Shown piece after piece: positions 1,941 to 35,922 of a stretch of 64,000 nucleotides of DNA. The DNA comes from Clostridia bacterium (GTDB lineage: Bacteria > Bacillota > Clostridia > Christensenellales > CAG-1252). The notes beneath the pieces were generated by a model. The model was given only the letters and a program-made list of their open reading frames with translations. It was not told the origin of the DNA and ran no database searches. Where the stretch lies: contig JAFPXC010000001.1 of the NCBI GenBank assembly GCA_017394805.1, positions 2,322 to 66,321 of the forward strand. The letters are read 5' to 3'. Position 1 is the first letter of the stretch. Each line of letters opens with the position of its first letter. The position numbers and the translations under genes were made by a program.

Positions 1941-2510
1941 ATGAAACCTATCGAAAAAGACTTTATATTGCAAACAACCACGCGCAAACAAATGAGAGAC
2001 GATTTAATCAAAGAATTTCTCAAAGAAGAACCTGGCACTGGCAATGGAGATAATGCCTCCAAGTATTCATTTAGAGTGGAGACATTTGGAGTTTATCAAA
2101 TCGTATTAGAAAGACCTGCACATAATAACAAAGGGATAGATTTTATTGTTAGAGTTAATGACATAACGTTTGAACATAAAGTAAATGGCAAAAAACTCAA
2201 GTATTCAAAATTCAACAATGCACCAAGCCATGATAATATACTTGATGCACTTGAATATTGCAAAAATAACTATACAAAACTATATAATTCATTTGTTATA
2301 AACGAGCTTTCAAAGATATATAACTGTAAAATAGTTGGGTATTCGAAGCCTTCTGGAGCATCATTTGTAGATTGTAAAGGAAACCAACATCCTATTGAAA
2401 TGCTATTGTTGTCAATCAAGTGGCTTTTTATCGAGCAAGACTGTACATATTGGAACTACTCTGGTAGAAATATGTTATATACTGGTTTAAAAAATAAAAA
2501 TCTTATTTAA
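1941..2510 (+). CDS. Hypothetical protein (189 aa), first gene of the AT-rich R-M cluster
   Basis: ORF track; strong AGGAGG RBS 7 nt upstream; codon composition matches neighbouring island genes. I recognise no motif. Confidence 0.6.
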   Translation: MKPIEKDFILQTTTRKQMRDDLIKEFLKEEPGTGNGDNASKYSFRVETFGVYQIVLERPAHNNKGIDFIVRVNDITFEHKVNGKKLKYSKFNNAPSHDNILDALEYCKNNYTKLYNSFVINELSKIYNCKIVGYSKPSGASFVDCKGNQHPIEMLLLSIKWLFIEQDCTYWNYSGRNMLYTGLKNKNLI

Positions 2511-2583
2511 AACGATAAAGATTTTCTTGCTATTATTCGCTATTTTGGAATATAATATTCTTATTAAAATTCGAGGTGATATT

Positions 2584-3651
2584 ATGTTGAGTTTTATGTC
2601 CGCGAAAGAAGCCGCTGAAAAATGGGATATCTCTCAAAGGAGAGTTGCTATACTATGTTCCGAAAAACGTATCGACGGAGCAATGATGGTCGGCAATATG
2701 TGGATTATTCCGTCCACCGCTGAAAAACCTATTGATAAAAGAACCGTTCGTTATGAAAAAACAAAAACTGTCACACTTAAACCATTTGTAAAATGGGTCG
2801 GCGGTAAAAGTCAACTTGTCGATGAAATAGAAAAAATGTTACCGTCTGACGGTGAAAAAGTTTTGACGAAATACGCTGAACCTATGGTCGGCGGCGGCGC
2901 ATTATTTTTCAATATCCTTTCAAAGTATGATTTTGAAGAACTTTATATAAGCGATATAAACGCTGAACTTATAAATGCATACAAGGCGGTAAAAACCGAT
3001 ATCGACAACTTGATCTCAAAACTCAATGAAATGCAAATGTCGTTCTTGCCTATGGATGAAAACGGCAGAAAGTATTTTTATTATAATATTCGCGAAAAAT
3101 TTAATTCGACCATCTTATCTGCAGAAACTTCAACTGAAAAAGCCGCACAGTTTATTTTCTTGAATAAAACTTGTTTCAATGGCTTATATCGCGTAAATAG
3201 AAAAGGTCAATTTAACGTTCCTATGGGAGCATATAAAAATCCGACTATTTGTGATGATGAAAACTTGCGAAACATTCACGAAGCGTTGCAAAACGTAACG
3301 ATTGTTTGCGGAGATTATTCGCTTTCAAAATCATTCATAGATAAAGATACTTTCGTATATCTTGATCCCCCTTATCGTCCTATTTCCGAAACATCTGCAT
3401 TTACTTCATATAATTCTGAATCTTTTGATGATAATGAGCAGATACGACTTGCACAGTTTATTGATGAAATCAACAAGTTGGGAGCAAAGATTGTTTTAAG
3501 CAATTCGGATCCGAAAAACGTAAACGAAGATGACAATTTCTTTGATGATTTGTATAGAAATTATAAAATCAACCGTGTCGAAGCAAGCCGTGCAATCAAT
3601 AGCAAAGGTGATAAGCGCGGTAAAATAAACGAATTGCTCATTTGCAACTGA
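2584..3651 (+). CDS. Dam-family N6-adenine DNA methyltransferase (GATC type, DpnM / M.MboIA-like) with an N-terminal helix-turn-helix extension
   Basis: FVKWVGGKSQL, EPMVGGGALFF (AdoMet motif), NGLYRVNRKGQFNVP and YLDPPYRP (motif IV) match the Dam/DpnM family from memory. The extra N-terminus MLSFMSAKEAAEKWDISQRRVAILCSEKRIDGA looks like an excisionase/MerR-type HTH. Start chosen at ATG 2584 after GAGGTGA; the ORF-track TTG at 2527 is less likely. Confidence 0.9.
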   Translation: MLSFMSAKEAAEKWDISQRRVAILCSEKRIDGAMMVGNMWIIPSTAEKPIDKRTVRYEKTKTVTLKPFVKWVGGKSQLVDEIEKMLPSDGEKVLTKYAEPMVGGGALFFNILSKYDFEELYISDINAELINAYKAVKTDIDNLISKLNEMQMSFLPMDENGRKYFYYNIREKFNSTILSAETSTEKAAQFIFLNKTCFNGLYRVNRKGQFNVPMGAYKNPTICDDENLRNIHEALQNVTIVCGDYSLSKSFIDKDTFVYLDPPYRPISETSAFTSYNSESFDDNEQIRLAQFIDEINKLGAKIVLSNSDPKNVNEDDNFFDDLYRNYKINRVEASRAINSKGDKRGKINELLICN

Positions 3652-3661
3652 GGTGAGTCAA

Positions 3662-3904
3662 ATGACAAATGATAATTTCAGTATTTTGTTAGATTGTTTG
3701 CGGATAGTTGAAAATCCAAATATTGAACAGCAAGCAAAAGATAAGGCAATCAAAAATCTTATATGTAAAATGATAGATATGAATATGGCTTACGGCAATA
3801 TTACTAAACAAGACTTGAAGCATTTAGTTGATATTTCTAATACTGCAAAAGAATTATACGAAGTGGCTTCAGTATATTTCGCGAGTCATGACATTAGACT
3901 CTAA
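3662..3904 (+). CDS. Small hypothetical protein (80 aa) between the methylase and the endonuclease
   Basis: ORF track frame (GTG 3653). ATG 3662 is preferred because GAGGTGAG lies just upstream. No recognisable HTH, so it is not an obvious C-protein. Confidence 0.5.
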   Translation: MTNDNFSILLDCLRIVENPNIEQQAKDKAIKNLICKMIDMNMAYGNITKQDLKHLVDISNTAKELYEVASVYFASHDIRL

Positions 3905-3915
3905 GGAGAAAACAT

Positions 3916-4779
3916 ATGAAAAGAGATTTTAATGAGTGGCTTAAAACATTCAAGTCGAGCATTTGCAATTATGGCTATTATGTTGATTTCGAGAAAGTTT
4001 ACGGCAATATCGAGAATATAAAAGTTGAGTTGAATATTCTCAATTCTCTTATCGGCTCTAAAAATATAGAACATGATTTTGAAAAGCTTGTTGCAGAATA
4101 TCCGCAAGTGTTGAAATGTATTCCGATTTTGCTTGCGGTGCGTGGGCGTGAAATATATGCTATTGACGGCGATGGCGAATATCTTTTTAATTTCCATACG
4201 CTCAATTACACGACAAAAGAGTATATAATGTTTATGCAAAAGACGGGTTTGTTTGATTTAATCGCAAATCACGTTATCAATAACCTTGTCGATTATGTTA
4301 CGGGCGTAGAAGTAGGACTTGACAGTAACGGTCGCAAAAATCGCGGCGGACATTTAATGGAAAATCTTGTTGAAGATTATCTTGTAAAAGCGGGACTTAT
4401 AAAAGGTGAAACATACTTTAAGGAGATGAAACTATCCGCTATTGAAAAGAAATGGGATATTGATTTATCGGGTATATCAAATCAAGGAAAAGCCGAAAAG
4501 CGGTTTGATTTTGTTGTTAAAAAAGGTAAAACAATTTATGGCATAGAAACGAATTTTTATACCGGTGGCGGCTCAAAATTAAACGAAACTGCACGCAGTT
4601 ATAAAACAATCGCATTAGAGGCAAAACAAATCGACGATTTTTCCTTCGTGTGGCTTACCGACGGTTACGACGGTTGGAAATCTGCACGGCATAATTTGGA
4701 AGAAACTTTTGACGTGTTAGACAATATGTATTGTATAGCCGACTTGGAAAATGGCGTTATTGCTAAACTGTTCGATTGA
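3916..4779 (+). CDS. Type II restriction endonuclease, DpnII/MboI family (expected GATC specificity)
   Basis: 287 aa, the same size as R.DpnII. Long colinear similarity from memory: FNEWL...YYVDFEKVY..NI..IKVELNILNSLIGSKNIE, LVDYVTGVEVGLDSNGRKNRGG, KRFDFVVK, NFYTGGGSKLNETARSYK. AAGGAGA RBS. Confidence 0.9.
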   Translation: MKRDFNEWLKTFKSSICNYGYYVDFEKVYGNIENIKVELNILNSLIGSKNIEHDFEKLVAEYPQVLKCIPILLAVRGREIYAIDGDGEYLFNFHTLNYTTKEYIMFMQKTGLFDLIANHVINNLVDYVTGVEVGLDSNGRKNRGGHLMENLVEDYLVKAGLIKGETYFKEMKLSAIEKKWDIDLSGISNQGKAEKRFDFVVKKGKTIYGIETNFYTGGGSKLNETARSYKTIALEAKQIDDFSFVWLTDGYDGWKSARHNLEETFDVLDNMYCIADLENGVIAKLFD

Positions 4780-4780
4780 T

Positions 4781-5524
4781 ATGGCAAAAAAGATTCCTTT
4801 ACAACCCGAAGATTTCGAACTCGAAACAAATACCGTTTGGGCTTTTCCCGATCGCGGTAAATGGGCAACGCACGACGCTAAATATCGTGGAAATTGGTCA
4901 CCGTATATTCCGAGAAACGTAATTCTGCGTTATTCGAAAGAGAACGACATTGTTTTGGATCAGTTTGTCGGTGGCGGCACTACTGCCGTTGAAGCCAAAC
5001 TGACAGGCAGAAATTTTATCGGTGTTGATATTAACCCAAACGCACTTGAAATTACAAAAAGCAAATTGAATTTCGAGTGTGAATTTAATCCGACGATAAA
5101 TATTATGCAAGGCGATGCGCGCAATCTTTCGTCTATTGCCGACGATTCGATAGACCTTATTTGCACACACCCGCCTTATGCCGATATTATTCATTACAGC
5201 GAAGATATCGACGGCGATATGTCGCTTATGCCGATGAAAGATTTTTTGTTTGAAATCGGCAAAGTCGCAGAAGAATGCTATCGGGTATTGAAAAAGGATA
5301 AGTTTTGCGTTATACTTATGGGAGATATGCGCAAAAAAGGTATGGTCCAACCACTTGCTTTTGAAACGATGCGTATTTTTGAAATGGCAGGGTTCAAAAC
5401 GAAAGAAATTATAATCAAAGAACAACACAACTGCAAAGCCACGGGCTATTGGAAAACAAACAGTATAAAGTTTAATTTTCTTTTACTCGCCCACGAGTAT
5501 ATGTTTGTTTTAAAAAAGCGGTAA
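4781..5524 (+). CDS. Second DNA amino-methyltransferase of the R-M cluster (motif I before motif IV)
   Basis: LDQFVGGGTTAVEAKLTGRNFIGVDINPNA (AdoMet motif I) is followed by CTHPPYADI (catalytic xPPY). ATG 4781 lies 1 nt after the endonuclease stop (TGAtATG). The M-R-M order mirrors the MboI arrangement. Confidence 0.8.
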   Translation: MAKKIPLQPEDFELETNTVWAFPDRGKWATHDAKYRGNWSPYIPRNVILRYSKENDIVLDQFVGGGTTAVEAKLTGRNFIGVDINPNALEITKSKLNFECEFNPTINIMQGDARNLSSIADDSIDLICTHPPYADIIHYSEDIDGDMSLMPMKDFLFEIGKVAEECYRVLKKDKFCVILMGDMRKKGMVQPLAFETMRIFEMAGFKTKEIIIKEQHNCKATGYWKTNSIKFNFLLLAHEYMFVLKKR

Positions 5525-5613
5525 GTTTTGTAAAATGCAAGGTTTATTATAACCATCCACTACGCTTGATAGTAGTCGATAGTAGATAAGAAAAGTTATT
5601 AGGAGTGAAAAAA

Positions 5614-6885
5614 ATGACAACTATTGTACGCTCAATCGAAGATGCATTGCATTACGAAATATCTCAAGTACAAGTTGAAGAATATTGGAATTTGGGTGAT
5701 ACTCCAGAATTAAAAATACATAGTATTCATGCATACCCAGCAAAATTTCCGGCATTTATCGCAAGCAAAGCCATTCAGTTGGCATATAAAAGTGGAATTG
5801 AAGTGAATACGGTTTCGGATATTTTTTGCGGTTGTGGGACAGTTGCAATTGAAGCTAAACTTAATGGTGTAAATTTCTGGGGATGTGATATCAATCCCAT
5901 CGCAACCTTAATTACTAAGGCAAAAATAGGAAATTATAGTATAAGCAAATTAGAGGAACTGTATAATTTTATTCAAGATTCATATTCCAATAACAGAACC
6001 GTATATAATTACGAAGAGTCAAATGAACGTATAAGATACTGGTTCAAACAAGAGCAATTCTATGACTTAAGCAAGCTTAAAGAAGCAATTATGTCTATTC
6101 CCAAAGGAAAATATCGCACTTGTTTTGAGTGTCTGTTTTCATCCATATTAAAACCTACATCAAAATGGCTAACAAAATCTATAAAGCCACAAATTGATCC
6201 CAATAAGAATATTGCTGATGTTTGGAAAACTTTTGAACGTCAATTTAGAAAGTTTACTAAATGTGTGAGCGATATGCCTCAAACTCAATCTAATATTGAA
6301 ATTGTGACATGTAGTATTTTAACAAAAAAAAGTTTGCCAAAAGTAGATTTAATTATTACTAGTCCGCCTTATGTAACCTCATATGAGTATGCGGATTTGC
6401 ATCAACTTTCTTCCCTGTGGCTTGACTTTACGGATGATTACACTTTGCTACGGAAGGGAACGATGGGAAGCGCATATAATAGTGAAACATTTAACTATGA
6501 TATTCTAGAATTAAATGAAACGGCACGTGAAATTATATTAGAATTAAAGTCAAATAAAAAAATTTCAAAGGCAAAAATTAAGTCTATTGCGAGATACTAT
6601 ATTGATATGCAAAAGGCTACAGAGCAGTGCTATAAAATGTTGAATCCGCACGGTATGGCGTTATTTGTAATTGGAGATACGGAATACAAAGGAACGCAAA
6701 TACATAACTCTAGGCAACTTGTTGAATCTTTAATAAAAAGCGGGTTTCGGGAAGTTACTGTTTCTAAACGAAAGATTAGGAATAAAATATTAACTCCTTA
6801 TAGAGATGAAAATGGCAAGTTTACTAGCAACAAAGATGATCGGGAAATCTATCACGAGGAATTTGTAATTACTGGGAGAAAATAA
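5614..6885 (+). CDS. DNA amino-methyltransferase with SPPY catalytic motif (N4-cytosine or N6-adenine), first gene of a three-gene operon
   Basis: DIFCGCGTVAIEAKLNGVNFWGCDINPIA (motif I) and LIITSPPYVTSYEY (motif IV, nt 6361-6372). AGGAG lies 8 nt before ATG 5614. About 150 aa separate the two motifs, which may be a target-recognition region. Confidence 0.8.
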   Translation: MTTIVRSIEDALHYEISQVQVEEYWNLGDTPELKIHSIHAYPAKFPAFIASKAIQLAYKSGIEVNTVSDIFCGCGTVAIEAKLNGVNFWGCDINPIATLITKAKIGNYSISKLEELYNFIQDSYSNNRTVYNYEESNERIRYWFKQEQFYDLSKLKEAIMSIPKGKYRTCFECLFSSILKPTSKWLTKSIKPQIDPNKNIADVWKTFERQFRKFTKCVSDMPQTQSNIEIVTCSILTKKSLPKVDLIITSPPYVTSYEYADLHQLSSLWLDFTDDYTLLRKGTMGSAYNSETFNYDILELNETAREIILELKSNKKISKAKIKSIARYYIDMQKATEQCYKMLNPHGMALFVIGDTEYKGTQIHNSRQLVESLIKSGFREVTVSKRKIRNKILTPYRDENGKFTSNKDDREIYHEEFVITGRK

Positions 6886-6887
6886 CT

Positions 6888-9122
6888 ATGGCTAAAAGAG
6901 AACTTATAAAAATTGAACCGTATGCAAGATTATTAACTATGCTTAGTGAACAACTTATCAAAAATGAAGTAGTTGCTTTAACCGAGATTGTTAAAAATGC
7001 ATATGATGCAGATTCTAATTGGGTAAGAATAAGTTTTGAAAATTTTACAAGGAATTATAAGGCTCAAAAGGATTCAAGAATCATTATCGAAGATTGTGGA
7101 TGTGGTATGACTGAAGAAGTTTTGAGACATGACTTTATTAATCCCGCTTCTGCAAATAAAAAAATTAAAAAGGAACGCGGAGAAACATCTCCTAACGGAA
7201 GAATACTTCAAGGAGAAAAAGGGATTGGCCGCTTTTCGTTATTCAAATTAGGCAAAACCGTTACGGTTTATACAAAAACAAAAGATGATACTAGTCCTAG
7301 AAAATTAATTGCAGATTTCTCAAAATATGGAGATGAGTTTTTAAATGATGATGAAAGTCAAATTATGCTTTCAGAATTAGATGTGGAATTCATTTCAGAA
7401 GCCACTGAATTCAGTTTTGAGCCGCAAGTTATGCTCGCGGATGGGTATGCCAAACGGCCCAATCAAGGGACAACTATTATAGTCGAAAATTTAAATGATA
7501 GCTGGGGAAAGGCAAAAATAGAAAAACTACAAGATGAATTAATGAGTCTTATCGGGAACGATGAAGATGATTTTTCTATATATATTTTTAAAGATAATTC
7601 TTTCCTTCCTTCTGTCGTGATAACTGAGGATGACAGATTGCAGAAAATCATTGATCAGAAAGCGGTATATAAAATTGAGGGTCACTATATAGAAAAAGAG
7701 TCTGCATTTGAATTTACAATTAATGGGAAAGCATATAAAAAAGATATTTACGATAAACAAATTAACAAGTTAAGTACATACAAAAAATATAAAGTTGATA
7801 AAGGCTTCAAGGAAAATGACAGCTTGGAAAATAATAGTGCATTAACAAATACAGAATGTGGCGATTTTTCTTTTAGATTTTATGTGTTTGATTTGGAAAA
7901 GCAATATGTGCGAGAAAAATTTAGACTCCCTGTTGATGATTTGAAAATTGTAAAGAAGAATCGCGTTTATTTATATCGAGACGGTATAAGGGTATTTCCA
8001 TATGGAAGTATTAAGGATGATTGGTTGCAGGTTGATACTATTAGAGGAACGCAAAAGGCCAGTGCTATGTTTAGCAATGACCAATTAATTGGTTATGTAA
8101 ATATAACCTATAAGGATAATCCCAACTTGAAAGATAAAACTAATCGTGAAGGATTAATGGAGGTAGGCAATGCCTATCTAGATTTTGTTGCCATGATCCA
8201 GTGCTTTTTGCAATACATCAAAGTATATCATTATGATTTGGATTATGCAAACAAAAAAAATGCAATAAAGAAATTTGATAAGAATGAGCAAATAAATCTG
8301 TCTAATAGTTTTTCTAAAGTAATAAAAGAAGTAAATGATGATTCAATCAAAAAGCAACTAATTAAAATACAACAAGATGTTGAAAAACAAAGCGAGTATC
8401 AGTTAGGCCGTATTCGTGTCGTAGAGGATTTAGCAGGGATCGGTCTATCAATTCAAGCAACGCACCATGACCTAAATAATTTTATCAAGAGAAGTTATAA
8501 TGTTATTGATGACTACAGCAGAAATCTTTTGATAGACGACAATTCTTTTACAGATAAAAGCATTGTTTTAGAGAAATTAGAACGTCTGCGTGGTCTATTG
8601 TCTGCTATGGACGATCTTTTGGTAGACATGAAGAGTTTGTTTGCATCTACGCAAAGGAAATCCAAACAGATTCGCGTTGCGGAAGTATTAAATAAAGTAA
8701 TCGGGTATTATAAAAATTTATTTGTAACTAAAAACATAAATTTCGATGTTAAATCAATTGGAAACAATCCTTTAGTTATTACTATGCCCGAAGCATTATT
8801 AATGACTATCTTTATTAACATATTTGACAATGCTATTTATTGGCTTGAAGATGAAGATAAACAGGCAAAACAAATACGGATAACCATAAATTGCGATGAA
8901 CAATGTATCATTTTTTCAGATAATGGTCCGGGTATCTATCCCGAAGAGGAAGAAAAAATATTTGAAGCATTCTTTACAGGCAAAGGATTGGAAGGGCGCG
9001 GCCTTGGTTTATATATATGCAGGCAATTTATGGAACGATATGATTATCATATCCAAGTGATTAAAAACACCATTGATTGTTTGAACGGCGCTAATTTTTT
9101 GCTTGATTTTAACAAGGAGTGA
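6888..9122 (+). CDS. Dual GHKL protein: N-terminal MORC/MutL/Hsp90-like ATPase plus C-terminal histidine-kinase-like H-box + HATPase_c module
   Basis: N-terminal Bergerat motifs: EIVKNAYDAD, IIEDCGCGM, GEKGIGRFS. The middle contains VYLYRDGIRVFPYG..DDWL, which looks like a transducer. C-terminal motifs: IQATHHDLNNF (H-box-like, HH at nt 8463-8468), IFDNAIYW (N), FSDNGPGI (G1), FEAFFTGK (F) and GRGLGLYICRQ (G2). No TM segment. Starts 2 nt after the MTase stop. Confidence 0.8.
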   Translation: MAKRELIKIEPYARLLTMLSEQLIKNEVVALTEIVKNAYDADSNWVRISFENFTRNYKAQKDSRIIIEDCGCGMTEEVLRHDFINPASANKKIKKERGETSPNGRILQGEKGIGRFSLFKLGKTVTVYTKTKDDTSPRKLIADFSKYGDEFLNDDESQIMLSELDVEFISEATEFSFEPQVMLADGYAKRPNQGTTIIVENLNDSWGKAKIEKLQDELMSLIGNDEDDFSIYIFKDNSFLPSVVITEDDRLQKIIDQKAVYKIEGHYIEKESAFEFTINGKAYKKDIYDKQINKLSTYKKYKVDKGFKENDSLENNSALTNTECGDFSFRFYVFDLEKQYVREKFRLPVDDLKIVKKNRVYLYRDGIRVFPYGSIKDDWLQVDTIRGTQKASAMFSNDQLIGYVNITYKDNPNLKDKTNREGLMEVGNAYLDFVAMIQCFLQYIKVYHYDLDYANKKNAIKKFDKNEQINLSNSFSKVIKEVNDDSIKKQLIKIQQDVEKQSEYQLGRIRVVEDLAGIGLSIQATHHDLNNFIKRSYNVIDDYSRNLLIDDNSFTDKSIVLEKLERLRGLLSAMDDLLVDMKSLFASTQRKSKQIRVAEVLNKVIGYYKNLFVTKNINFDVKSIGNNPLVITMPEALLMTIFINIFDNAIYWLEDEDKQAKQIRITINCDEQCIIFSDNGPGIYPEEEEKIFEAFFTGKGLEGRGLGLYICRQFMERYDYHIQVIKNTIDCLNGANFLLDFNKE

Positions 9123-9127
9123 TACAT

Positions 9128-10405
9128 ATGGAAAACGTAAGACAAATGTTTTCAGGTGATATACTGATAATAGACGATGAAGTTAATGAAAAAGATACAG
9201 AAATTAATAGAATTAAAGAATTTTTGGAAACGAAGCGTTTTCATGTTATTGCATCTGAGTCTATTCCTACCCCAAATGAGTTAACAGACAAGAAAATTGC
9301 ATTTGTTGTATGCGACTGGAAATTTAATAATATAGATGAGAATTTGAATGCACAGAATGTTATTAGTTTTCTAAACAATATTAACACAAATCGCTTAATT
9401 CCTATTTTTATATGTACGACTGTAGAAAAAGATGAAATTGAAGAATATCTGCTTGATGAAAATGGATGTAAAAAGTATAAGAAAAATGAAGCATCTTGTG
9501 TTTTTATAGTTAAAAAGTCCGAGATTGTAGGAGATAATATTTTTAAAGTTATCAATAACTGGATTGAGAAAAATCCTTCAATTCAATATATGAAAGCTTG
9601 GGAAAAAACTATCGAAATTGCAAAAGAAAAGATGTTCAGTGATTTATATAATGAATCTGAATTCTGGCCGCTTGTACTACATCAATGTTTTAAAAATGAT
9701 GGCGATGATCCGACAGAAGAAATGGGACAATTTTTATCTCGGAATCTATTTTCTAGGGTTAGTGGCACGTATAAGTTTAAAGAATTAGAGCCAAGATCAA
9801 TGGATGATATTCAATTAAAAAACATATTAGATGGAGAAAGGACATTTTATTATCAGGAAGAAAACATATCCGATGAAACGCTTTTACATACAGGCGATAT
9901 ATTTGAATTGGCAGGAAACTTATACATTAACATTAAAAGGCAGTGTGATTTATTGCGGAATAACAGAGATGTTTATTTGCTTAAGCTTGACTCTGCTGGT
10001 AAAATTAGTGATTCTCCAATTAAATTGTCTGATAACAAAGAGAATCTGCAGATTTTAGGGAAAAACTATAATATTGCTGATAAGCCTATAGAAAAAATCA
10101 ACGACGCACTGGATAAAGCTTTTGCAAAAACTAATTCTTTTTATAACGGAAAATTTTTAGAAAAAATCAACGAAGTAATTATTCCATGTGTGTGTCATCT
10201 TGATGTCTGTAAAATTGATCTTCGTTCTTTAAGAGTTATATCAGTTGATAATTTAAAGACTGATTACAAACGCAAGGCGCGACTTTTAGAACCATATATC
10301 AGCATTGTCACGGAAAAATTTGCATCATATATTTCATCGAAAGGAACCATGCGTACACCTGAATCTTTGTTGACTCATAAGTTTATTTGTCAAGATATAG
10401 AATAA
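9128..10405 (+). CDS. Receiver (REC) domain protein with an uncharacterised ~280-aa C-terminal domain
   Basis: All five REC landmarks are present: ILIIDDE (acidic pair), AFVVCDWKF (phospho-acceptor Asp, nt 9314-9316), PIFICTT (Thr) and VFIVKKS (Lys). I cannot assign the remainder to any family. AAGGAG lies 8 nt before ATG 9128, which is 5 nt after the upstream stop. Confidence 0.75.
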   Translation: MENVRQMFSGDILIIDDEVNEKDTEINRIKEFLETKRFHVIASESIPTPNELTDKKIAFVVCDWKFNNIDENLNAQNVISFLNNINTNRLIPIFICTTVEKDEIEEYLLDENGCKKYKKNEASCVFIVKKSEIVGDNIFKVINNWIEKNPSIQYMKAWEKTIEIAKEKMFSDLYNESEFWPLVLHQCFKNDGDDPTEEMGQFLSRNLFSRVSGTYKFKELEPRSMDDIQLKNILDGERTFYYQEENISDETLLHTGDIFELAGNLYINIKRQCDLLRNNRDVYLLKLDSAGKISDSPIKLSDNKENLQILGKNYNIADKPIEKINDALDKAFAKTNSFYNGKFLEKINEVIIPCVCHLDVCKIDLRSLRVISVDNLKTDYKRKARLLEPYISIVTEKFASYISSKGTMRTPESLLTHKFICQDIE

Positions 10406-10436
10406 AACTCGATTTACGTTACTAACGCTCCGCCAT

Positions 10437-10480
10437 AAAGAAACGGTTATTTTGATAGAATGACCGTTTCTTTTATTTTA
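10437..10480 (+). terminator. Rho-independent terminator ending the three-gene operon
   Basis: aaagaaacggt (10437-10447) pairs with accgtttcttt (10463-10473), followed by a T-rich tail to 10480. Confidence 0.75.
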
Positions 10481-10659
10481 TCTCAAAACGGCTTGAAATA
10501 AGGGCATTTCGCCTTTTTCTTTATTGCCGTTCTTCCCCAAATACAAATCGTAGGATTATGGGGGGGTAATCGTTGGATTATGGTTTTAGTTGATACCTAC
10601 ACGCACTTTTTCGACTTTTTCTAACTTTTTTGAATTCGATCTCAATCTGACGGTTTTCG

Positions 10660-11460
10660 TCAAACGTCATCGATCGGAGCGCCGAGGAGCGCTTCGCTGA
10701 GTTTTTTTGCCTCTTCTTTTTCGCTTCGCATGTGAAACACCTTCCCCCGCAGGGAATCCATACGTTCGTCCAGTTCGGCACTGAGGTCCGCACACTTTTT
10801 GAGTTCATCCGACATTTCGCCGTCAAAGAGTGAACCCTTTTTATATCTCAGCTGATGCTCCAGACTCGCCCATGCGTCCATCGCAATGGTGCGAAGTTGT
10901 ATTTCCGCTTTCATCACGCGCTTTTCCTGCTGCAGAAAAATAGGGACGGCTACGATCATATGGAGGCTGCGGTATCCGTTCTCTTTGGGAGAAGAGATAT
11001 AATCCTTTTCCTGAATGATTTGTATATCGTCCTGCTTTTTCAACGCGTCCGCCAGCATAGAAACGTCGTCTGTAAAAGAGCAGATCACCCGTATCCCGGC
11101 AATATCGTTCAGGTTTTCCTCTATGCTGTTGATCGTGAGCGGATACCCGCGTGAGATCAGTTTATTCCTGATCGAAAGCGGATTTTTAAGTCTTGTTTTG
11201 ATCGAGCTGATCGGCTGGCGATCAAAACGGAGCGAGAATTCCTCGTTCAGCACCTTGAACTTTGTCTCGATCTCCATCATGGCGCAGTTGTAATAGGACA
11301 TGAGTTTCGCAAAGGAATAGGTTTTTTGTATCGCCGCTTCAAACATCTCCTTGCTGATCGGCATCTCGGAAAAGTCCGACCTGTCTTCCGACAAAGGCAT
11401 CAATTCATTGTTTTTCATAAACATCGTCCCCTTTACTTTTTTCGCATTAAGATTGGTCAT
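10660..11460 (-). CDS. Small alarmone synthetase (RelA/SpoT-domain (p)ppGpp synthetase, RelQ/RelP-like)
   Basis: SIKTRLK...S...K, DIAGIRVIC, GYRSLHMIV, EIQLRTIAMDAWASLEHQLRYK are the classic synthetase-domain motifs. The exact start is uncertain (11460, or ATGs near 11424/11418). Confidence 0.85.
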   Translation of the reverse strand: MTNLNAKKVKGTMFMKNNELMPLSEDRSDFSEMPISKEMFEAAIQKTYSFAKLMSYYNCAMMEIETKFKVLNEEFSLRFDRQPISSIKTRLKNPLSIRNKLISRGYPLTINSIEENLNDIAGIRVICSFTDDVSMLADALKKQDDIQIIQEKDYISSPKENGYRSLHMIVAVPIFLQQEKRVMKAEIQLRTIAMDAWASLEHQLRYKKGSLFDGEMSDELKKCADLSAELDERMDSLRGKVFHMRSEKEEAKKLSEALLGAPIDDV

Positions 11461-19083: not shown

Positions 19084-19674
19084 ATGGTAAAGGTGGTATT
19101 GGCAAAGACTCGTGGTCTGACGTGGGCAAAAGCCCGCGCCTTGCCCTTCGTCCTCGCAGAGGACGTAGCCGAGGCCGACCGCTACCGAAGCCCCGACGAC
19201 AAGGTGCTGCACCTCGTATCGGCCTTTCTCAAACGGAAATACGTGGGGACGTGGACGGTTTCGCCCGAGGGCAAGCCCCTTTCCCTCGCCGTTTGCTTCA
19301 ACGTGTCGCACACCGAATGGCTGGTGGCTTTGGCGCTCGCCCCCTTTGACGTGGGCGTAGACGTGGAGCGCGTCCGCACGGCCGACGCGGATTTGCGCAA
19401 CTATATCGCCGCCTCCGACGAGCGGGCGCACGTCCACTCGGACGAGGACTTTTTCCGTCTGTGGACGGCCAAAGAGAGCCTGGTCAAAGCCGAAGGCACG
19501 GGCTTTGACGTCAAACCCGACGAAGTGCCCGCCTTGCCCCTCGAAGGGTGCAAGACCTACAAAAATCATCGCTATTATTCCCGCCAAACCGAGGTGGGCG
19601 ACTGCGTGCTATCCGTCACGTGCCGCACCGACCGACCGTTTGAGTGGGCCATTGAAAAGGAGAATATACTATGA
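19084..19674 (+). CDS. 4'-phosphopantetheinyl transferase (Sfp type)
   Basis: FNVSHT, VGVDVERV and FRLWTAKESLVKAEGTG motifs. The stop overlaps the NRPS start (ATGA at 19671-19674). Confidence 0.85.
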   Translation: MVKVVLAKTRGLTWAKARALPFVLAEDVAEADRYRSPDDKVLHLVSAFLKRKYVGTWTVSPEGKPLSLAVCFNVSHTEWLVALALAPFDVGVDVERVRTADADLRNYIAASDERAHVHSDEDFFRLWTAKESLVKAEGTGFDVKPDEVPALPLEGCKTYKNHRYYSRQTEVGDCVLSVTCRTDRPFEWAIEKENIL

Positions 19675-22600
19675 GCCAATATTATCCGCTGTCCAAAACC
19701 GAAGAAGGCATCTACGTATCCTGTCTTACGCCTACCGACGCCTACAACCTCACCAACGTACTGCGGTTGGGCAAATCCTTGGACGTTCCTCGTTTCACCG
19801 CCGCGGTGGCCGCGGTATTCGACGCGCACCCCTATCTGTTCACCGTGTTGTTCGAGGGAGAGGACGGCGGCATATACAAAAAACTCCAACCCGTACCCAT
19901 AGAGTTGCCCGTCGTCGAGGTGGACGAACTCGACGTACAGTCGCCCCCCTTCGAGATGCTGGGGCGGCATTTGTTCCGCTTGGCTTTGTACCGCGTGGCG
20001 GGCGAATACGTCTTCGTCTTCGACTTCCATCATATCATTTTCGACGGCACTTCGGCCAAATTGTTCATCGACCAAGTGGGCGCCGTCTATCGCGGCGAAT
20101 CCATCGAAAAAGAGACCTACAGCGCCAACGAATTCGGCCTTGACGAGCAAAAACGCCTGCAAACGGACGACTACCGCAAGGCAAAAGATTTCTTCGAGAA
20201 GGCCGTCAAAGACCCCGAGACCGATTCCGCGCTCATCGAGGACAAGTCGGAGGGCACGATCCTTCACGGCACGTTCCATCAGGACCTCACCGTCCTCAAC
20301 GCGGACGTAAAAGACCTGACCAAACGGCTGAAAATCAAAACGTCGGCATTCTTCTTGGCGACTTTCGGCTATTTGTTGTCCAAAATCAATATGGACGACA
20401 AGGCGCTCTTCCTCACCGTCAACAACGGCCGCGACGAGATGACGCGCCATTCGTTGGGTATGTTCGTCAAGACCTTTCCCTTCTATCTGGAAAACAAAGA
20501 AACGGTGGCCGAATACCTCTCGGCCGCCAACGACTATCTGGTGGGCGCGACCGCCAGCCTACTGTATCCCTTCTCGGACGCGGTCAAGGATTTGGGCGTG
20601 CCCGACGGCGTGATGTTCGCCTATCAAGGGGACAGTTTCTACAAGACCGAGTGGGAGGGGCGTGACGCCTTCGTGTCCCTTCTCGACCGCAAGGACGGCA
20701 AGGACAAGTTGAGCGTGGAAGTATATCGTGAAAACGGGTGCTTCCTGGTGTGGGTAGAGTACCGCGCCGACCTCTACGAAGAGGACACCGTTCGGCACCT
20801 CATCCGCCTCTACGACGTGGCGCTCAAAGAGTTTTTGCGAAAAGCCGCGCTTGCCGACGTCGATCTCGTCGACGAAAAGGAAAAGGCGCTGTTGGATTCT
20901 TTCAACCGCGCGGACCTCTCCTATATAGACGCAAACCGCACGGTATTGGACGATTTCCGCGATATGGTAAAGAAATATCCCGACCACCCCGCCGTCGTGT
21001 TCCGCGACAAGCGCTACACCTATCGTGACGTGGATCGCTTGTCCGACAATATAGCCGCCTACCTCGCGGCCAAAGGCGTGGGCAAAGAGGACGTGGTGTC
21101 CGTACTCATCAACAAGAGCGAATATATCGTCATCGCCTCGTTGGGCGTGCTCAAATCGGGCGCGGCCTACCAGCCCCTCGATCCGTCTTACCCCGTGGAG
21201 CGATTGGCGTTCATGGTCAAGGACGTCGCCGCCAAGGCCCTCATCAAGGACCGTGACCTCGATTTGTTGCAAGACTACGACGGCCCCATTCTCTACACGG
21301 ACGAAGTAGACGCGTTGCCCGACCACGCGGCGCCTCGGGTGGACGTGCGGCCCCGAGATTTGTTCATTATGCTGTATACGTCGGGTTCGACGGGCGTGCC
21401 GAAAGGCGTTATGCTCGAGCACGGCAACCTCAACACGTTCGCCACCTATCACGCGCGGCGGTTCGGCGTAGACCATACGGCCAGAGTAGCCGCCTACGCA
21501 TCGTACGGGTTCGACGCGGATATGCTCGACCTCTATCCCACCCTCACGCACGGCGGGTGCGTATACGTCATACCCAACGAACTCAGGCTGGACCTCATCA
21601 AGTTGGGGGACTACTTCAACCAAAACGGCGTCACGCACGCCATGCTCACCACGCAGGTGGGGCGGCAATTCATCGAAATGATAGACGCGCCCACGTTGCG
21701 TTTCCTCTTGGTCGGCGGCGAAAAGTTGGTGCCCGTCGCACCGCCCAAATACACGTTGGCCAACGGCTACGGTCCCACCGAGGGCACGGTATATTGCTCG
21801 GCCCAAGTGGTGGATCGCACGTACTATCGCGTGCCTATCGGCAAAGCCAACGAAACCTACAAGACCTACGTCCTCGACAAAAACGGCCGTCGCCTGCCCA
21901 CCTTGGCGCAAGGCGAATTGTGCATAGCCGGCCCGCAGGTGGCGAGGGGCTATCTCAACCGTGAGGAAGAGAACAAAAAAGCCTTTCTCCTTAATCCCTT
22001 CGACGAAGACGCCGCCTTTGCGCGGCTCTATCGCACGGGCGACGTGGTGCGCTATCTCGCGGACGGCACGTTGGACTTCATCGGTCGCAAGGACGGTCAG
22101 GTGAAGATACGCGGCTTCCGCGTGGAACTCTCGGAAGTGGAAAAGGTCATTCGGGAATACGCGGGCGTCAAAGACGCCACCGTCAAGGACTTCGTGGACC
22201 CCGCGGGCGTCAAGTATTTGTGCGCCTACGTCGTGTCGAACGACGAGATAGACGTGGACGACCTCAACGCCTTTATCGCGTCCAAAAAGCCCCCCTATAT
22301 GGTGCCCGCCTACACGATGCAGATAGACGCCATTCCCCTCAACCAAAACCAAAAAGTCAACAAACGCGCCTTGCCGCAGCCCCAACTCAAACAGCGCGAA
22401 AAGGTAGCGCCCGCGGGTGAGGACGAGCAAGCGGTGTACGACATTCTCGCGGGCATTCTGGGCACGCGGGACTTCGGCGTTACCACGGACGTCTACGAGG
22501 CGGGCCTCACCAGCGTGTCCTCTATCCGTTTCGCCATTCTCTTGTCCAAACGATTCGGCAAAGAGGTGGGCAACGCCGACTTCCGCGCCTGCCCCACCGT

Positions 22601-30052: not shown

Positions 30053-30550
30053 GTTTTAGTACCACTTTGAATCACATACGGCTAAAATGGGGGTATTGCA
30101 CGGGATTTTCGGGAACAGGTTTTAGTACCATTTTGAATCACATACTGCTAAAACTGATTGTTAGACGTACTCTTGTCTGGACAAGTTTTAGTACCATTTT
30201 GAATCACATACGGCTAAGACTTGTGCGCTATATAGTACCCCTTAGACGCAGTTATAGTACCATTTTGAATCACATACGGCTAAAACATACGTTGGGTATA
30301 AAGTTTTCGTATGCCAGTTTTAGTACCATTTTGAATCACATACGGCTAAAACTTATTTTAGCGGTGGTAGGCGCAACAACAGGTTTTAGTACCATTTTGA
30401 ATCACATACGGCTAAAACAGCGGTGCTTTGTTGATTTCCTCGGCGGTTGTTTTAGTACCATTTTGAATCACATGCGGCTAAAACGTTCGCCGGACGGCAT
30501 CTCCTCGATGCGGAGTTTTAGTACCATTTTGAATCACATACGGCTAAAAC
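30053..30550 (-). CRISPR. CRISPR array, 8 x 36-bp repeats and 7 x 30-bp spacers (type II-A)
   Basis: Repeats start at 30053, 30119, 30185, 30251, 30317, 30383, 30449 and 30515 (period 66). The + strand consensus is GTTTTAGTACCATTTTGAATCACATACGGCTAAAAC. Minus-strand transcription (crRNA repeat GTTTTAGCCGTATGTGATTCAAAATGGTACTAAAAC) is inferred from tracrRNA complementarity, cas gene direction, the AT-rich leader at 30551-30626 and the doubly mutated distal repeat at 30053. Spacers on the + strand are: gggggtattgcacgggattttcgggaacag; tgattgttagacgtactcttgtctggacaa; ttgtgcgctatatagtaccccttagacgca; atacgttgggtataaagttttcgtatgcca; ttattttagcggtggtaggcgcaacaacag; agcggtgctttgttgatttcctcggcggtt; gttcgccggacggcatctcctcgatgcgga. 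Confidence 0.95.
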
Positions 30551-35782: not shown

Positions 35783-35787
35783 ATCTA

Positions 35788-35816
35788 TTGACAACCTCCT
35801 CGTTTGATGGTAGAAT
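35788..35816 (+). promoter_or_regulatory. tracrRNA promoter
   Basis: TTGACA (35788-35793), exactly 17 nt, TAGAAT (35811-35816). The predicted start at ~35823-35825 coincides with the first base of the anti-repeat. Confidence 0.7.
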
Positions 35817-35822
35817 AAATTC

Positions 35823-35922
35823 AGCATTTTGAATCACATACGAAGTTAAAATAAATGCTAAACTCAATGCCTTTTTAGGTTCCGTTTTGACGGAGAAGTG
35901 CCACCTCGGTGGCATTTTTTTT
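35823..35922 (+). ncRNA. tracrRNA
   Basis: The anti-repeat CATTTTGAATCACATACG (35825-35842) is a perfect 18-nt complement of crRNA repeat positions 9-26. It is followed by AAGTTAAAATAA, the bulge plus lower stem seen in the S. pyogenes tracrRNA. Two downstream hairpins follow (tccgt-tttg-acgga; gccacc-tc-ggtggc), ending in a T8 run at 35915-35922. Confidence 0.85.

Follow-up and report, generated by a model that had tools for sequence, protein, structure and literature searches.

What does a receiver-like protein do when its output region resembles none of the standard output domains? The question is raised by the last gene of a small operon in the window analysed here, a stretch of 64,000 nucleotides from the genome of a Clostridia bacterium. 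The original prediction described the gene product as a canonical receiver (REC) domain joined to some 280 residues of unknown fold, encoded in a defence-island operon, and proposed that it is a phosphorylation-gated effector. Our preferred reading, at a probability of about 0.45, is that the gene encodes a phosphorylation-gated, nucleic-acid-directed toxic effector belonging to a three-gene immune cassette that resembles a restriction-modification (R-M) system. Below we set out the evidence for this reading and weigh it against four others.

The receiver gene is the last gene of a three-gene operon

The genes and signals on which the argument rests are these:

5614–6885, + strand: gene 1, DNA methyltransferase of the N6_N4_Mtase type
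6888–9122, + strand: gene 2, paraMORC-type GHKL ATPase plus histidine kinase, 744 aa, putatively soluble
8466–8468, + strand: codon of H527 in gene 2, the predicted phosphorylated His of the H-box
9113–9118, + strand: AAGGAG ribosome-binding site of the receiver gene
9128–10405, + strand: gene 3, putative receiver-like effector protein, 425 aa (ATG at 9128, stop at 10403–10405)
10437–10473, + strand: terminator-like hairpin with a 17-bp stem and a T-rich tail

The ORF list places the start of gene 3 at a GTG at 9119. We favoured the ATG at 9128 because the AAGGAG site, read from the sequence, precedes it by 8–9 nt. The kinase gene ends with a TGA stop at 9120–9122 and contains this site in its 3' end, a position which suggests that translation of the receiver gene is coupled to that of the kinase gene. 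The hairpin begins 32 nt past the receiver gene stop and closes the operon, and the reverse strand across 9128–10405 is dense with stop codons. The size of the family became apparent from an exhaustive profile search, which found 879 homologous cluster representatives (clustering at 50%) at E ≤ 1e-3 and 355 at E ≤ 1e-30; word-indexed searches for homologues, run with profiles A1 and A3, contributed few more. So many homologues exclude a chance ORF, and 9128–10405 is a real gene.

The N-terminal domain has a receiver fold and a divergent sequence

Structure prediction divided the protein into the following parts:

9128–9532, + strand: receiver domain, aa 1–135
9536–9841, + strand: helical domain, aa 137–238
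9842–10342, + strand: beta-rich domain with a predicted MazF/PemK/CcdB-like fold, aa 239–405
10343–10402, + strand: tail, aa 406–425

In the full-length AlphaFold2 (AF2) model (pLDDT 83), residues 1–135 form a flavodoxin-like (beta-alpha)5 fold, with strands at 11–15, 40–43, 57–63, 93–96 and 125–128 alternating with helices. Foldseek matched this part to the receivers of CheY, PmrA, CpxR, ArcA and RcsB with TM-scores of 0.60–0.66 on the target. The catalytic quintet is complete, comprising the acidic pair D16-D17, the predicted phospho-acceptor D63 (codon 9314–9316), T97 and K130. Across 60 diverse relatives D16, D63 and K130 are invariant and D17 is at least 90% conserved; T97 is conserved to at least 90% in family alignments A1 and A2.

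The Pfam Response_reg model (PF00072) matched neither the whole protein nor residues 1–141, even at E ≤ 10, and we therefore do not regard the receiver as canonical in sequence. The sole sequence signals for a receiver were both weak: OKR_DC_1_N (E 0.048) and the NCBIfam PleD receiver (E 0.032). The predicted fold thus identifies the N-terminus as a receiver that has diverged in sequence. The original call of a canonical REC domain at about residues 1–135 was right about the fold but not about the sequence.

The output region contains two predicted domains

The output region, roughly 290 residues from 137 to 425, had no match in Pfam, NCBIfam, PADLOC or PHROGs, whether we searched with the whole protein or with its halves. 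Specifically, no HTH, GGDEF, CheB, PP2C, PD-(D/E)xK, HNH or TIR domain was matched in these libraries or among PDB sequences, and searches of PDB sequences with the receiver protein and with the family profile found nothing. The expectation of a receiver fused to a non-standard output is thus borne out, and no match to a known non-effector output domain appeared. The single domain of unknown fold gave way to two predicted domains, of which the beta-rich one has a recognisable fold.

The helical domain consists of four to five predicted helices, mostly with pLDDT 85–93. Two of its tryptophans, W145 and W180, are invariant, and W158 and D191 are nearly so. Structure and PDB sequence searches found no relative for it.

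The beta-rich domain is marked by TG256-D257, N268, K/R270, an invariant C273-D274 pair, R385-L-L-x-P389-Y and a C-terminal helix. It carries a variable insertion of about 50 residues (approximately 296–345) that is absent from distant homologues. The following tail starts with a conserved G406-x-x-R409-x-P411 motif, ends in acidic residues and is predicted to be disordered (pLDDT below 50 for residues 407–425 in the AF2 model), and its length varies among relatives. C273, P389 and G406 are invariant in all 60 full-length relatives examined. Taken together, D257, N268, K/R270, C273, D274 and R385 fit no known nuclease motif. Reading the invariant cysteine as part of a PTP-like C-X5-R signature was dropped, as the spacing from Cys to Arg is 3–4 residues and variable. 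In one relative (P0160) a GIY-YIG nuclease is fused C-terminal of the family region; this is a single case, on a contig of 3x coverage, and may just as well indicate that nuclease activity is absent from the core protein itself.

The beta-rich domain is predicted to resemble MazF, PemK and CcdB toxins

Following up the suggestion that structure prediction and Foldseek might reveal the nature of the output region, we compared two models with known structures. One was a separate C-terminal model built from 16 sequences, of moderate confidence (pLDDT 76). Its top 42 matches in the PDB were all MazF-family toxins, and CcdB appeared at rank 50. The best match, with a modest E-value, was 4me7_D (E 3.7e-3, probability 1.0, TM-score 0.75 on the target, rmsd 3.3 Å). 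The full-length model independently led to the same toxin family, and in the viral library BFVD the top matches of the beta-rich domain were PemK-like proteins and an endoribonuclease. Measured against complete MazF chains, the TM-scores were 0.66–0.75, with rmsd 3.3–4.2 Å and sequence identities of 6–11%. Part of the output region is thus predicted to adopt a toxin fold: an SH3-like barrel of the MazF/PemK/CcdB kind with a C-terminal helix. Shared features include a G-D opening the first strand, a short helix past the second strand and the long C-terminal helix.

The likeness is claimed at the level of fold. None of the 32 + 60 family members searched matched the PemK_toxin or CcdB families of Pfam, and hhalign gave a probability of 0.2% when the beta-domain profile was compared with a small alignment of MazF, Kid, ChpBK and EndoA, a figure to be taken as a lead only. 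We accordingly set aside true homology to MazF. The domain also differs from MazF-family toxins in lacking sequence-profile similarity to them, in its insertion of about 50 residues and in its fusion to a receiver and a helical domain, whereas MazF is a free protein of about 110 residues.

MazF has its catalytic Arg in a long loop between beta1 and beta2 and its catalytic Thr/Ser at the end of beta3. In the window protein, as judged from alignment and secondary structure and not from a residue-level superposition, a turn of three residues, lacking any conserved Arg, links beta1 to beta2; the conserved basic residue, K/R270, comes after beta2; and the end of beta3 has no conserved Thr/Ser. With the Arg loop replaced by a tight hairpin and no evident equivalent of the Thr, an RNase mechanism of the MazF type is not supported. 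We also found no small antitoxin gene next to the receiver gene: the operon runs from methyltransferase to kinase to receiver gene and then to the terminator, and no small partner ORF is conserved across 11 loci.

The partner genes encode a methyltransferase and a GHKL/histidine kinase

Gene 1 matched Pfam PF01555 (E 2e-13) and PADLOC MTase_II (E 3e-40). Its likely start is the ATG at 5614, 8 nt past an AGGAG ribosome-binding site; the ORF list gives a GTG at 5605. Its SAM motif is FxGxG and its catalytic motif TSPPY, and the approximately 170 residues between them probably form the target-recognition region. Within these motifs, D69/F71/G73/G75/T76 and T249-S-P-P-Y253 are invariant in six orthologues.

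Gene 2 was assigned from Pfam, NCBIfam and PDB matches. Pfam placed HATPase_c_3 at residues 29–146 (5.8e-19) and HATPase_c at 636–724 (1.5e-21). The N-terminal module has the Bergerat motifs (E33/N37/D40, D69xGxG73 and G109-G114), and residues 23–218 matched the NCBIfam family of BbrUII/HgiDII restriction enzymes (NF050001, 6.5e-19); the NCBIfam matches of the protein also included many histidine kinases. A strongly conserved middle region spans residues 359–427. The C-terminal part has a DHp helix with the H-box H527-D528, followed by a catalytic domain with N, G1, F and G2 boxes, and the histidine kinases HK853 and SrrB from the PDB align to residues 554–724. H527 (in ATHHD, with the acidic D528 next to it) precedes the stretch aligned with the DHp/CA domains of HK853. 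In alignment A5 (five orthologues, 36–71% identity), H527, D528 and the N, G1, F and G2 boxes are invariant. By sequence, then, the kinase and the receiver carry complete sets of phosphorelay residues.

The three genes travel together among defence and mobile-element genes

We compared the window with ten other distinct loci, from Lachnospiraceae, Oscillospiraceae, Prevotella, Thiodiazotropha, an Allorhizobium conjugative plasmid and metagenomic contigs, which together cover four bacterial classes. All 11 loci have the order methyltransferase, GHKL/histidine kinase, receiver-like gene, with the genes abutting or overlapping and the receiver gene always last: the kinase-like gene is directly upstream of it in the window and in each of the other ten, and every locus examined has a methyltransferase orthologue directly upstream of the kinase gene. 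In nine of the 11 the cassette consists of these three genes only, none with a recognisable nuclease. A four-gene variant (L009) has an additional 845-aa paraMORC gene that found no PDB relative and has only the GHKL N-terminus in common with the kinase. Compared with a type II R-M system, the methyltransferase is present and no endonuclease domain is recognisable in the cassette except for the GIY-YIG fusion in one relative.

The surroundings of the cassette vary by locus and include a type III R-M system, a C5-methyltransferase with an McrBC-like system, a Schlafen-like helicase, HipA, ArdA, integrases and MobC; usually it lies beside other defence or mobile-element genes. In the window it occupies an island of 31–36% GC between flanks of 43–57% GC, beside a DpnII R-M system. 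This low-GC island, the DpnII system, and the methyltransferase and GHKL/histidine kinase directly upstream agree with the defence-island operon originally proposed. Because the neighbours differ in other loci, we rejected the idea that the cassette is functionally tied to the DpnII system beside it.

Among orthologues, the receiver-like protein is 25–29% identical, the kinase 35–39% and the methyltransferase 40–52%. Faster divergence than that of its partners is typical of effectors exposed to conflict and so supports a role of the receiver-like protein as the effector.

The cassette is a divergent branch of described modules

Two-component-like modules tied to methyltransferases and paraMORC ATPases, named HEF_HK (PF19191) and Response_reg_2 (PF19192), were described in 2021 from sequence alone (Bellieny-Rabelo, Pretorius & Moleleki, Genome Biol Evol 2021, PMC8011034). 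In that work Response_reg_2 genes showed 91.6% linkage to an adjacent kinase-like gene with HATPase_c_3, DHp and HATPase_c, a regulatory role tied to R-M systems was proposed, and the C-terminal two-thirds of the response-regulator-like protein were left undescribed. The window cassette is alike in having an upstream methyltransferase, then a putatively soluble HATPase_c_3, DHp (with a His-acidic H-box) and HATPase_c protein, and then a protein of about 400 residues whose receiver has diverged but retains the acidic pair, the catalytic Asp, the Thr and the Lys. It differs in its methyltransferase, which is of the N6_N4/SPPY type, whereas C5 enzymes (PF00145) dominate in PMC8011034.

PF19192 matched neither the window protein nor any of its 32 close relatives at E ≤ 1, but it did match 5 of 60 broader full-length relatives (best E 2.9e-5) and none of 10 further ones. 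PF19191 was likewise absent: the window kinase matched only HATPase_c, HATPase_c_3, _5 and _2, the kinase of locus L005 only HATPase_c and HATPase_c_3, and precomputed Pfam annotations at other loci show only PF13589 and PF02518. The window protein is homologous over its full length to PF19192 members and yet beyond the reach of the model. The cassette as a whole is a divergent branch of the HEF_HK/Response_reg_2 modules and belongs to an already known kind.

The closest functional parallel is Detocs (DtcA/DtcB/DtcC), in which phosphotransfer from a histidine kinase to a receiver-effector was shown experimentally to drive anti-phage defence; the isolated effector is toxic, defence requires the phosphorylated His and Asp, and effector domains can be swapped (Rousset et al., bioRxiv 10.1101/2023.01.24.525353). 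Both systems pair a histidine kinase with a receiver-effector fusion, a putative one in our cassette, in which an effector takes the place of a DNA-binding output; the pair provides immunity in Detocs and would do so here, in place of regulating genes. The Detocs sensor is a TPR-containing kinase, whereas a MORC-type GHKL ATPase is the candidate sensor here. Detocs has a receiver-only buffer (DtcB) and no methyltransferase, and our cassette the reverse; the Detocs effector is usually an ATP nucleosidase of the PNP family, in contrast to the predicted MazF/PemK-fold domain. A comparison of the two detected no homology, no receiver-only gene and no TPR match, so that the relation is best regarded as functional analogy only. 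MADS, Hma, Detocs and the other catalogued defence systems were rejected as identifications, since neither the kinase nor the receiver protein was matched by a PADLOC model; only the methyltransferases were matched, by generic methyltransferase models and weakly by mad2 and HmaB.

The paraMORC/MORC ATPases of R-M systems and the BbrUII/HgiDII enzymes share with the cassette the GHKL module, linkage to methyltransferases and a sporadic, laterally mobile distribution. The paraMORC ATPases of R-M systems often have C-terminal nuclease domains (Iyer, Abhiman & Aravind 2008, PMC2292703). While these proteins and BbrUII/HgiDII carry a nuclease or other domain at their own C-terminus, the window kinase has a histidine-kinase core there and the putative effector is a separate protein, presumably gated by its receiver.

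A proposed mechanism and its alternatives

We infer both the toxicity of the output region and its gating by phosphorylation, and propose the following sequence of events. The methyltransferase, identified by its motifs and matches, would mark host DNA as self. The N-terminal GHKL+S5 ATPase module of MORC type would take over the role of a conventional sensor domain and would most likely engage unmodified or invading DNA. On sensing, the kinase would phosphorylate itself at H527 and pass the phosphate on to D63; both partners have the complete residue sets for this. Receivers typically dimerise once phosphorylated, and MazF-type toxins work as dimers. Phosphorylation of the receiver may therefore shift the association or conformation of the protein and free the module formed by the helical domain and the predicted barrel. 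This module would then cut or bind RNA or DNA, or poison a nucleic-acid enzyme as CcdB does, and the invader would be restricted or the infection aborted. A more specific version, which we offer tentatively and with the odds against it, holds that the cassette follows a hybrid logic: methylation for self-marking and DNA reading by a MORC clamp would be joined by a His-Asp phosphorelay to a receiver-gated toxin of the MazF/CcdB fold, instead of leading to cleavage by the sensor.

The alternative that survives best, though we consider it unlikely, casts the receiver protein as an adaptor or regulator that catalyses nothing. The C-terminal module would bind nucleic acid or one of the partner proteins, paraMORC ATPase or methyltransferase; phosphorylation would tune ATPase activity, methylation or DNA compaction; and restriction would come from the MORC-type clamp itself, which would silence or compact DNA in the manner of eukaryotic MORCs, or from an unlinked nuclease. 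The absence of any catalytic motif of a known nuclease or RNase is consistent with this, as is the inclusion of CcdB, a non-enzymatic binder, in the fold class. The extra paraMORC gene of L009 and the GIY-YIG nuclease of another relative look as if the core had no catalysis of its own, and the highly conserved C-terminal helix and tail (RLLxPY...G..R.P) resemble an interaction surface. However, with nine of 11 cassettes limited to three genes and no recognisable nuclease, some effector activity must sit in one of them, and the receiver-like protein has diverged further than its two partners, which is what one would expect of an effector. The invariance of the polar residues D257, C273 and D274 in so fast-evolving a protein also suggests an active site rather than a mere interface.

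If there is an active site, could it be that of an endonuclease? The protein would then be the true restriction enzyme of an ATP- and phosphorylation-dependent R-M system, cutting unmethylated DNA with a cryptic site of D257, N268, K/R270 and C273-D274. The constant presence of the methyltransferase with no other nuclease gene would be explained, and the relation of the GHKL module to BbrUII/HgiDII and the one fused GIY-YIG DNA nuclease point the same way. The order helix (E237), beta, beta (D257), beta (N268-x-K270), helix (Q272), beta is superficially like a PD-(D/E)xK core. The details argue otherwise: the would-be (D/E)xK motif has a nearly invariant Asn at the acidic site and, in the broad-family consensus, Arg for Lys; the helix past the hairpin is only a single turn; seven strands and a long C-terminal helix fit MazF better; and no nuclease fold was among the top 50 Foldseek matches in either library (PDB or BFVD). 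We know of no active PD-(D/E)xK variant with Asn at the acidic site and Arg for Lys. A PD-(D/E)xK nuclease was rejected on these grounds, and an endonuclease in general is decidedly unlikely.

Most response regulators are transcription factors, and the cassette might accordingly be a conventional two-component system regulating the neighbouring R-M genes or other genes, in line with the R-M-linked role proposed in PMC8011034. This reading is very improbable: neither sequence nor fold reveals an HTH or other DNA-binding output domain, the cassette moves as a unit among differing neighbourhoods in which its own methyltransferase is the only constant candidate target, and it occurs sporadically in different phyla on mobile elements, as defence modules typically do and housekeeping regulators do not.

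R-M systems can themselves act as addiction modules. Such behaviour is discussed in PMC8011034, and the toxin-family fold predicted for the output domain and the presence of the cassette on a conjugative plasmid and integrative elements would suit a module for post-segregational killing, in which phosphorylation by the kinase holds the toxin-fold protein off (or on) and loss of the element frees the toxin; this is more improbable still, as it leaves the conserved methyltransferase and MORC-type ATPase sensor unexplained and offers no antitoxin gene of differential stability, and the chromosomal copy in the window, in a defence island beside DpnII, fits immunity at least equally well.

Implications

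The cassette occurs in hundreds of bacterial lineages, as its 879 representatives at 50% clustering indicate. The Pfam models PF19191 and PF19192 miss whole branches of the family, and the C-terminal domains merit family definitions of their own. If the C-terminal module is a phosphorylation-gated toxin, the cassette would represent a second, mechanistically distinct form of two-component immunity after Detocs. Self-recognition based on methylation would be coupled to a toxin-type response, a toxin-antitoxin-type fold would come under a new mode of control, and a MORC-type ATPase, of a family central to eukaryotic epigenetic silencing, would serve as a signalling sensor. Should the more specific hybrid logic also hold, the cassette would provide the first MazF/CcdB-fold domain that answers to receiver phosphorylation and not to an antitoxin, and the first MORC-type ATPase to act as the input domain of a histidine kinase.

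The cassette and its third gene

The cassette consists of three genes on the forward strand:

5614-6885, +, DNA methyltransferase (N6_N4_Mtase; PADLOC MTase_II, 3e-40)
6888-9122, +, 744-aa MORC/paraMORC-type GHKL ATPase with a histidine-kinase core (HATPase_c_3, HATPase_c)
9128-10405, +, 425-aa RR-like protein

The 425-aa translation runs from ATG 9128 in a frame that stays open to 10405, and the opposite strand carries many stops. An AAGGAG ribosome-binding site at 9113-9118, inside the final codons of the kinase gene (stop TGA 9120-9122), lies 8-9 nt 5' of this ATG, a spacing that makes ATG 9128 the likely start rather than GTG 9119. At 10437-10473, a 17-bp hairpin with T-rich sequence behind it closes the cassette transcription unit. 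An initial search found 38 related clusters; an exhaustive search with a profile raised this to 879 cluster representatives at E<=1e-3, 355 of them with E<=1e-30. This is not a chance ORF.

The order methyltransferase, GHKL kinase, RR-like protein was found in all 11 distinct loci having enough sequence, and in each of them the genes abut or overlap. The loci come from Acetatifactor, an Oscillospiraceae MAG, Waltera hominis, Prevotella, Candidatus Thiodiazotropha and an Allorhizobium conjugative plasmid (annotated there as 'class I SAM-dependent methyltransferase', 'sensor histidine kinase' and 'hypothetical protein'), plus several metagenomic contigs and an unverified 6.2-kb 'Bacteriophage sp.' scaffold, MT837790, which carries the entire cassette. 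The three-gene order is thus strict across four bacterial classes. Genes outside it vary by locus; other defence or mobility functions predominate, among them type III R-M, a C5-methyltransferase with a McrBC-like pair, a Schlafen-like helicase, HipA, ArdA, ParB, integrases and MobC/PIF1. Because the neighbours change from locus to locus, we regard the cassette as a self-contained mobile unit. In the distant loci (L005-L012), identity to the window falls from 40-52% (methyltransferase) through 35-39% (kinase) to only 25-29% (RR-like protein), making the last the fastest-evolving part.

Several relatives depart from the basic arrangement:

L009, 971-3508, +, extra 845-aa HATPase_c_3 (paraMORC) gene between methyltransferase and kinase (four-gene variant)
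L008, split-kinase variant
L004 (Butyrivibrio MAG), 63-940, +, decayed RR-like gene in three fragments in differing frames, roughly aa 143-241 missing
L011, 3531-5285, +, P0160, RR-like protein whose conserved C-terminus runs on into a fused GIY-YIG nuclease domain (aa 443-569, E 3.8e-16)

The extra paraMORC protein has only its GHKL N-terminus in common with the kinase, and no PDB relative of it was found. In L004, neither kinase nor methyltransferase gave a match within 10.9 kb, a stretch that opens with the decayed copy. The GIY-YIG fusion is a single case on one contig, where assembly errors are possible because coverage is only 3x; the methyltransferase upstream of P0160 is in three fragments. 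In L010, a second methyltransferase paralogue (25% identity) is divergently transcribed just upstream.

Genomic surroundings in the window

The window cassette lies in a low-GC island at about 2000-10500 (31-36% GC, against 43-57% in the flanks). The island also holds a complete DpnII-type system, so the description of a defence-island operon in the original prediction held up. That system (2527-5524, +) is directly upstream of the cassette. Other features of the window are:

2527-3651, +, Dam-like D12 methyltransferase with an N-terminal HTH-like extension
3916-4779, +, DpnII endonuclease (Pfam E 5.8e-107)
4751-5524, +, second methyltransferase of the DpnII system, DpnA-like N6_N4
10660-11460, -, small alarmone synthetase (RelA_SpoT domain; NCBIfam YjbM-like GTP diphosphokinase, E 2.7e-48)
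19671-26861, +, 2,396-aa non-ribosomal peptide synthetase (adenylation, condensation and carrier-protein domains, two of each; terminal reductase NAD_binding_4)
30053-30550 and 31637-35827, -, type II CRISPR-Cas locus
45623-55696 and 56116-62622, +, giant candidate ORFs of 3,357 and 2,168 aa, each overlapped by several long opposite-strand ORFs

Two small ORFs, 1941-2510 (189 aa) and 3653-3904 (83 aa), had no family match in Pfam, PADLOC or PHROGs, and the 2,168-aa candidate ORF had no Pfam match at E<=1e-5. The alarmone synthetase, convergent with the cassette and just beyond the island, also matches PDC-S33, a candidate defence model in PADLOC (E 9.7e-24). The CRISPR array (about 7.5 copies of the 36-nt repeat GTTTTAGTACCATTTTGAATCACATACGGCTAAAAC, spacers of about 30 nt) adjoins a 1,396-aa Cas9 with Cas9_REC, HNH, RuvC and PI domains.

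The methyltransferase and the kinase

The methyltransferase of this conserved operon has intact motifs, FxGxG and TSPPY being invariant. The kinase N-terminus matched HATPase_c_3 (5.8e-19) and the N-terminus of the BbrUII/HgiDII restriction-enzyme family (6.5e-19), and the C-terminus matched HATPase_c (1.5e-21), with HK853 and SrrB aligning at 554-724. Across five orthologues (36-71% identity) the Bergerat motifs, the H-box H527-D528 and the N, G1, F and G2 boxes are kept, and the middle region 359-427 is very conserved. The kinase therefore has both a sensor-like ATPase module and a phosphodonor apparatus, each of them complete. It also matches two phage protein families without known function, phrog_8137 (E 1.6e-37, DHp/CA part) and, through its GHKL part, phrog_6203 (E 2.9e-25). 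Given these matches and the MT837790 cassette, relatives may travel on phages or prophages.

A receiver domain recognisable by fold

Pfam Response_reg did not match the RR-like protein or its aa 1-141, even at E<=10; the sole sequence hints were OKR_DC_1_N (0.048) and a PleD receiver (0.032). We built a full-length AlphaFold2 model on the family alignment (mean pLDDT 82.9), in which aa 1-135 form a clean (beta-alpha)5 domain resembling the CheY, PmrA, CpxR, ArcA and RcsB receivers in Foldseek. The catalytic set is whole in the family: D16-D17 after beta1, D63 after beta3, T97 after beta4 and K130 after beta5. D16, D63 and K130 are invariant in 60 relatives, against a mean column identity of 25%. 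With this phospho-acceptor site complete and conserved, the receiver looks capable of being phosphorylated. The original prediction of a canonical receiver at residues ~1-135 was thus right about fold and catalytic residues; at the sequence level 'canonical' is inaccurate, since Response_reg fails to detect the domain. With that correction, a receiver fused to a non-standard output is confirmed.

Part of the C-terminal region has a MazF-like predicted fold

The last ~290 aa matched nothing in Pfam, NCBIfam, PADLOC or PHROGs, nor any PDB sequence with either a single-protein query or a family profile, bearing out the view that the remainder carries no standard output signature. The models suggest two domains here rather than the single ~280-aa domain of unknown fold first proposed. 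For the helical domain (aa 137-238; W145 and W180 invariant, W158 and D191 nearly so) no relative was found. It is followed by a beta-rich domain with a long helix at its end (aa 239-405), a conserved G..R.P motif and, in the models, a disordered acidic tail.

Apart from receiver- and flavodoxin-like structures (including the AdiA N-terminal domain and flavodoxin-fusion constructs), Foldseek hits of the full-length model were almost all MazF toxins. When aa 136-425 were modelled separately (pLDDT 76), the top 42 PDB hits were all MazF-family toxins, led by B. subtilis MazF 4me7_D (E 3.7e-3, probability 1.0; TM 0.75 on target, rmsd 3.3 A); CcdB ranked 50. A viral structure library again gave 'PemK-like protein' and 'Endoribonuclease' as top matches. 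The structure comparison proposed with the original prediction therefore placed the beta-rich part with MazF/PemK and left the helical part matchless.

On these models the likeness is at the level of fold only. Sequence identity to MazF-type structures is 6-11%, no family member matched Pfam PemK_toxin, and hhalign of the family beta-domain profile against a small MazF/Kid/ChpBK/EndoA alignment gave a probability of 0.2%, which is to be taken as a lead only. Among the conserved positions, TG256-D257 opens the first strand, N268 and K/R270 close the second, the invariant C273-D274 lies in the helical turn that follows, and R385-L-L-x-P389-Y precedes the last helix. A ~50-residue insertion (about aa 296-345) is missing from distant homologues. 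In the model a three-residue turn stands in place of MazF's long catalytic loop, which leaves no ground for claiming catalysis of the MazF type.

A proposed phosphorelay to a toxic effector

We propose, with a probability of about 0.45 for the whole scheme, that the methyltransferase would mark self DNA and the MORC-type module would sense unmodified or invading DNA, leading to autophosphorylation at H527. The phosphate would pass to D63 of the RR-like protein, and receiver phosphorylation, probably via dimerisation, would turn the C-terminal module into an active toxic effector directed at nucleic acids. MazF-type toxins need dimerisation. As to the target, the evidence pulls two ways: the GIY-YIG fusion and the methyltransferase hint at action on DNA, and the predicted toxin-family fold hints at cleavage of RNA as by MazF or at poisoning as by CcdB. 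The phosphorylation-gated effector originally predicted has partial support: it is favoured by context and by predicted fold, and we found nothing to refute it, but no catalytic site can be named.

A non-catalytic adaptor modulating the MORC ATPase or the methyltransferase is the strongest competitor, though a distinctly less probable one. We think it unlikely that the RR-like protein is itself the restriction endonuclease, its active site being cryptic: nuclease folds were absent from the listed PDB structure matches of the aa 136-425 model. A conventional transcription regulator, for a protein whose output part matches no standard signature, is improbable, and a mobile-element addiction module slightly more so.

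Relation to known systems

The nearest experimentally characterised analogue of a cassette acting through such an effector is Detocs, in which kinase-to-receiver-effector phosphotransfer is needed for anti-phage defence and the effector domain alone is toxic (bioRxiv 10.1101/2023.01.24.525353). The two are not homologous. Detocs senses through a TPR protein, includes a buffer receiver and lacks a methylase, whereas the cassette has a MORC-type sensor-like ATPase and a methyltransferase. A HATPase+REC system appears in the DefensePredictor paper only among predicted, unvalidated candidates.

This type of system was described purely from sequence by Bellieny-Rabelo et al., 2021 (PMC8011034), who defined the HEF_HK proteins (PF19191; kinase-like, with N-terminal HATPase_c_3) and gave their linkage with receiver-like Response_reg_2 proteins (PF19192) as 91.6%. 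They saw a relationship to the paraMORC ATPases that Iyer et al. had treated in 2008 (PMC2292703) and proposed a regulatory role, leaving the C-terminal part of the RR-like protein without description. We found no later functional work on these systems in the literature. PF19191 and PF19192 do not recognise the window kinase and RR-like protein, and PF19192 is reached by 5 of 60 broader full-length relatives and by 0 of 10 others; on this basis we place the window gene in a divergent branch within this superfamily and type of system. Its methyltransferase is of N6_N4 type, in contrast to the mostly C5 enzymes upstream of HEF_HK/Response_reg_2 (PMC8011034). Relative to the literature, the predicted MazF/PemK fold of the output domain and its modelled two-domain anatomy are new, as are the N6_N4-methyltransferase-linked branch outside current Pfam models and its strict three-gene order in four classes.
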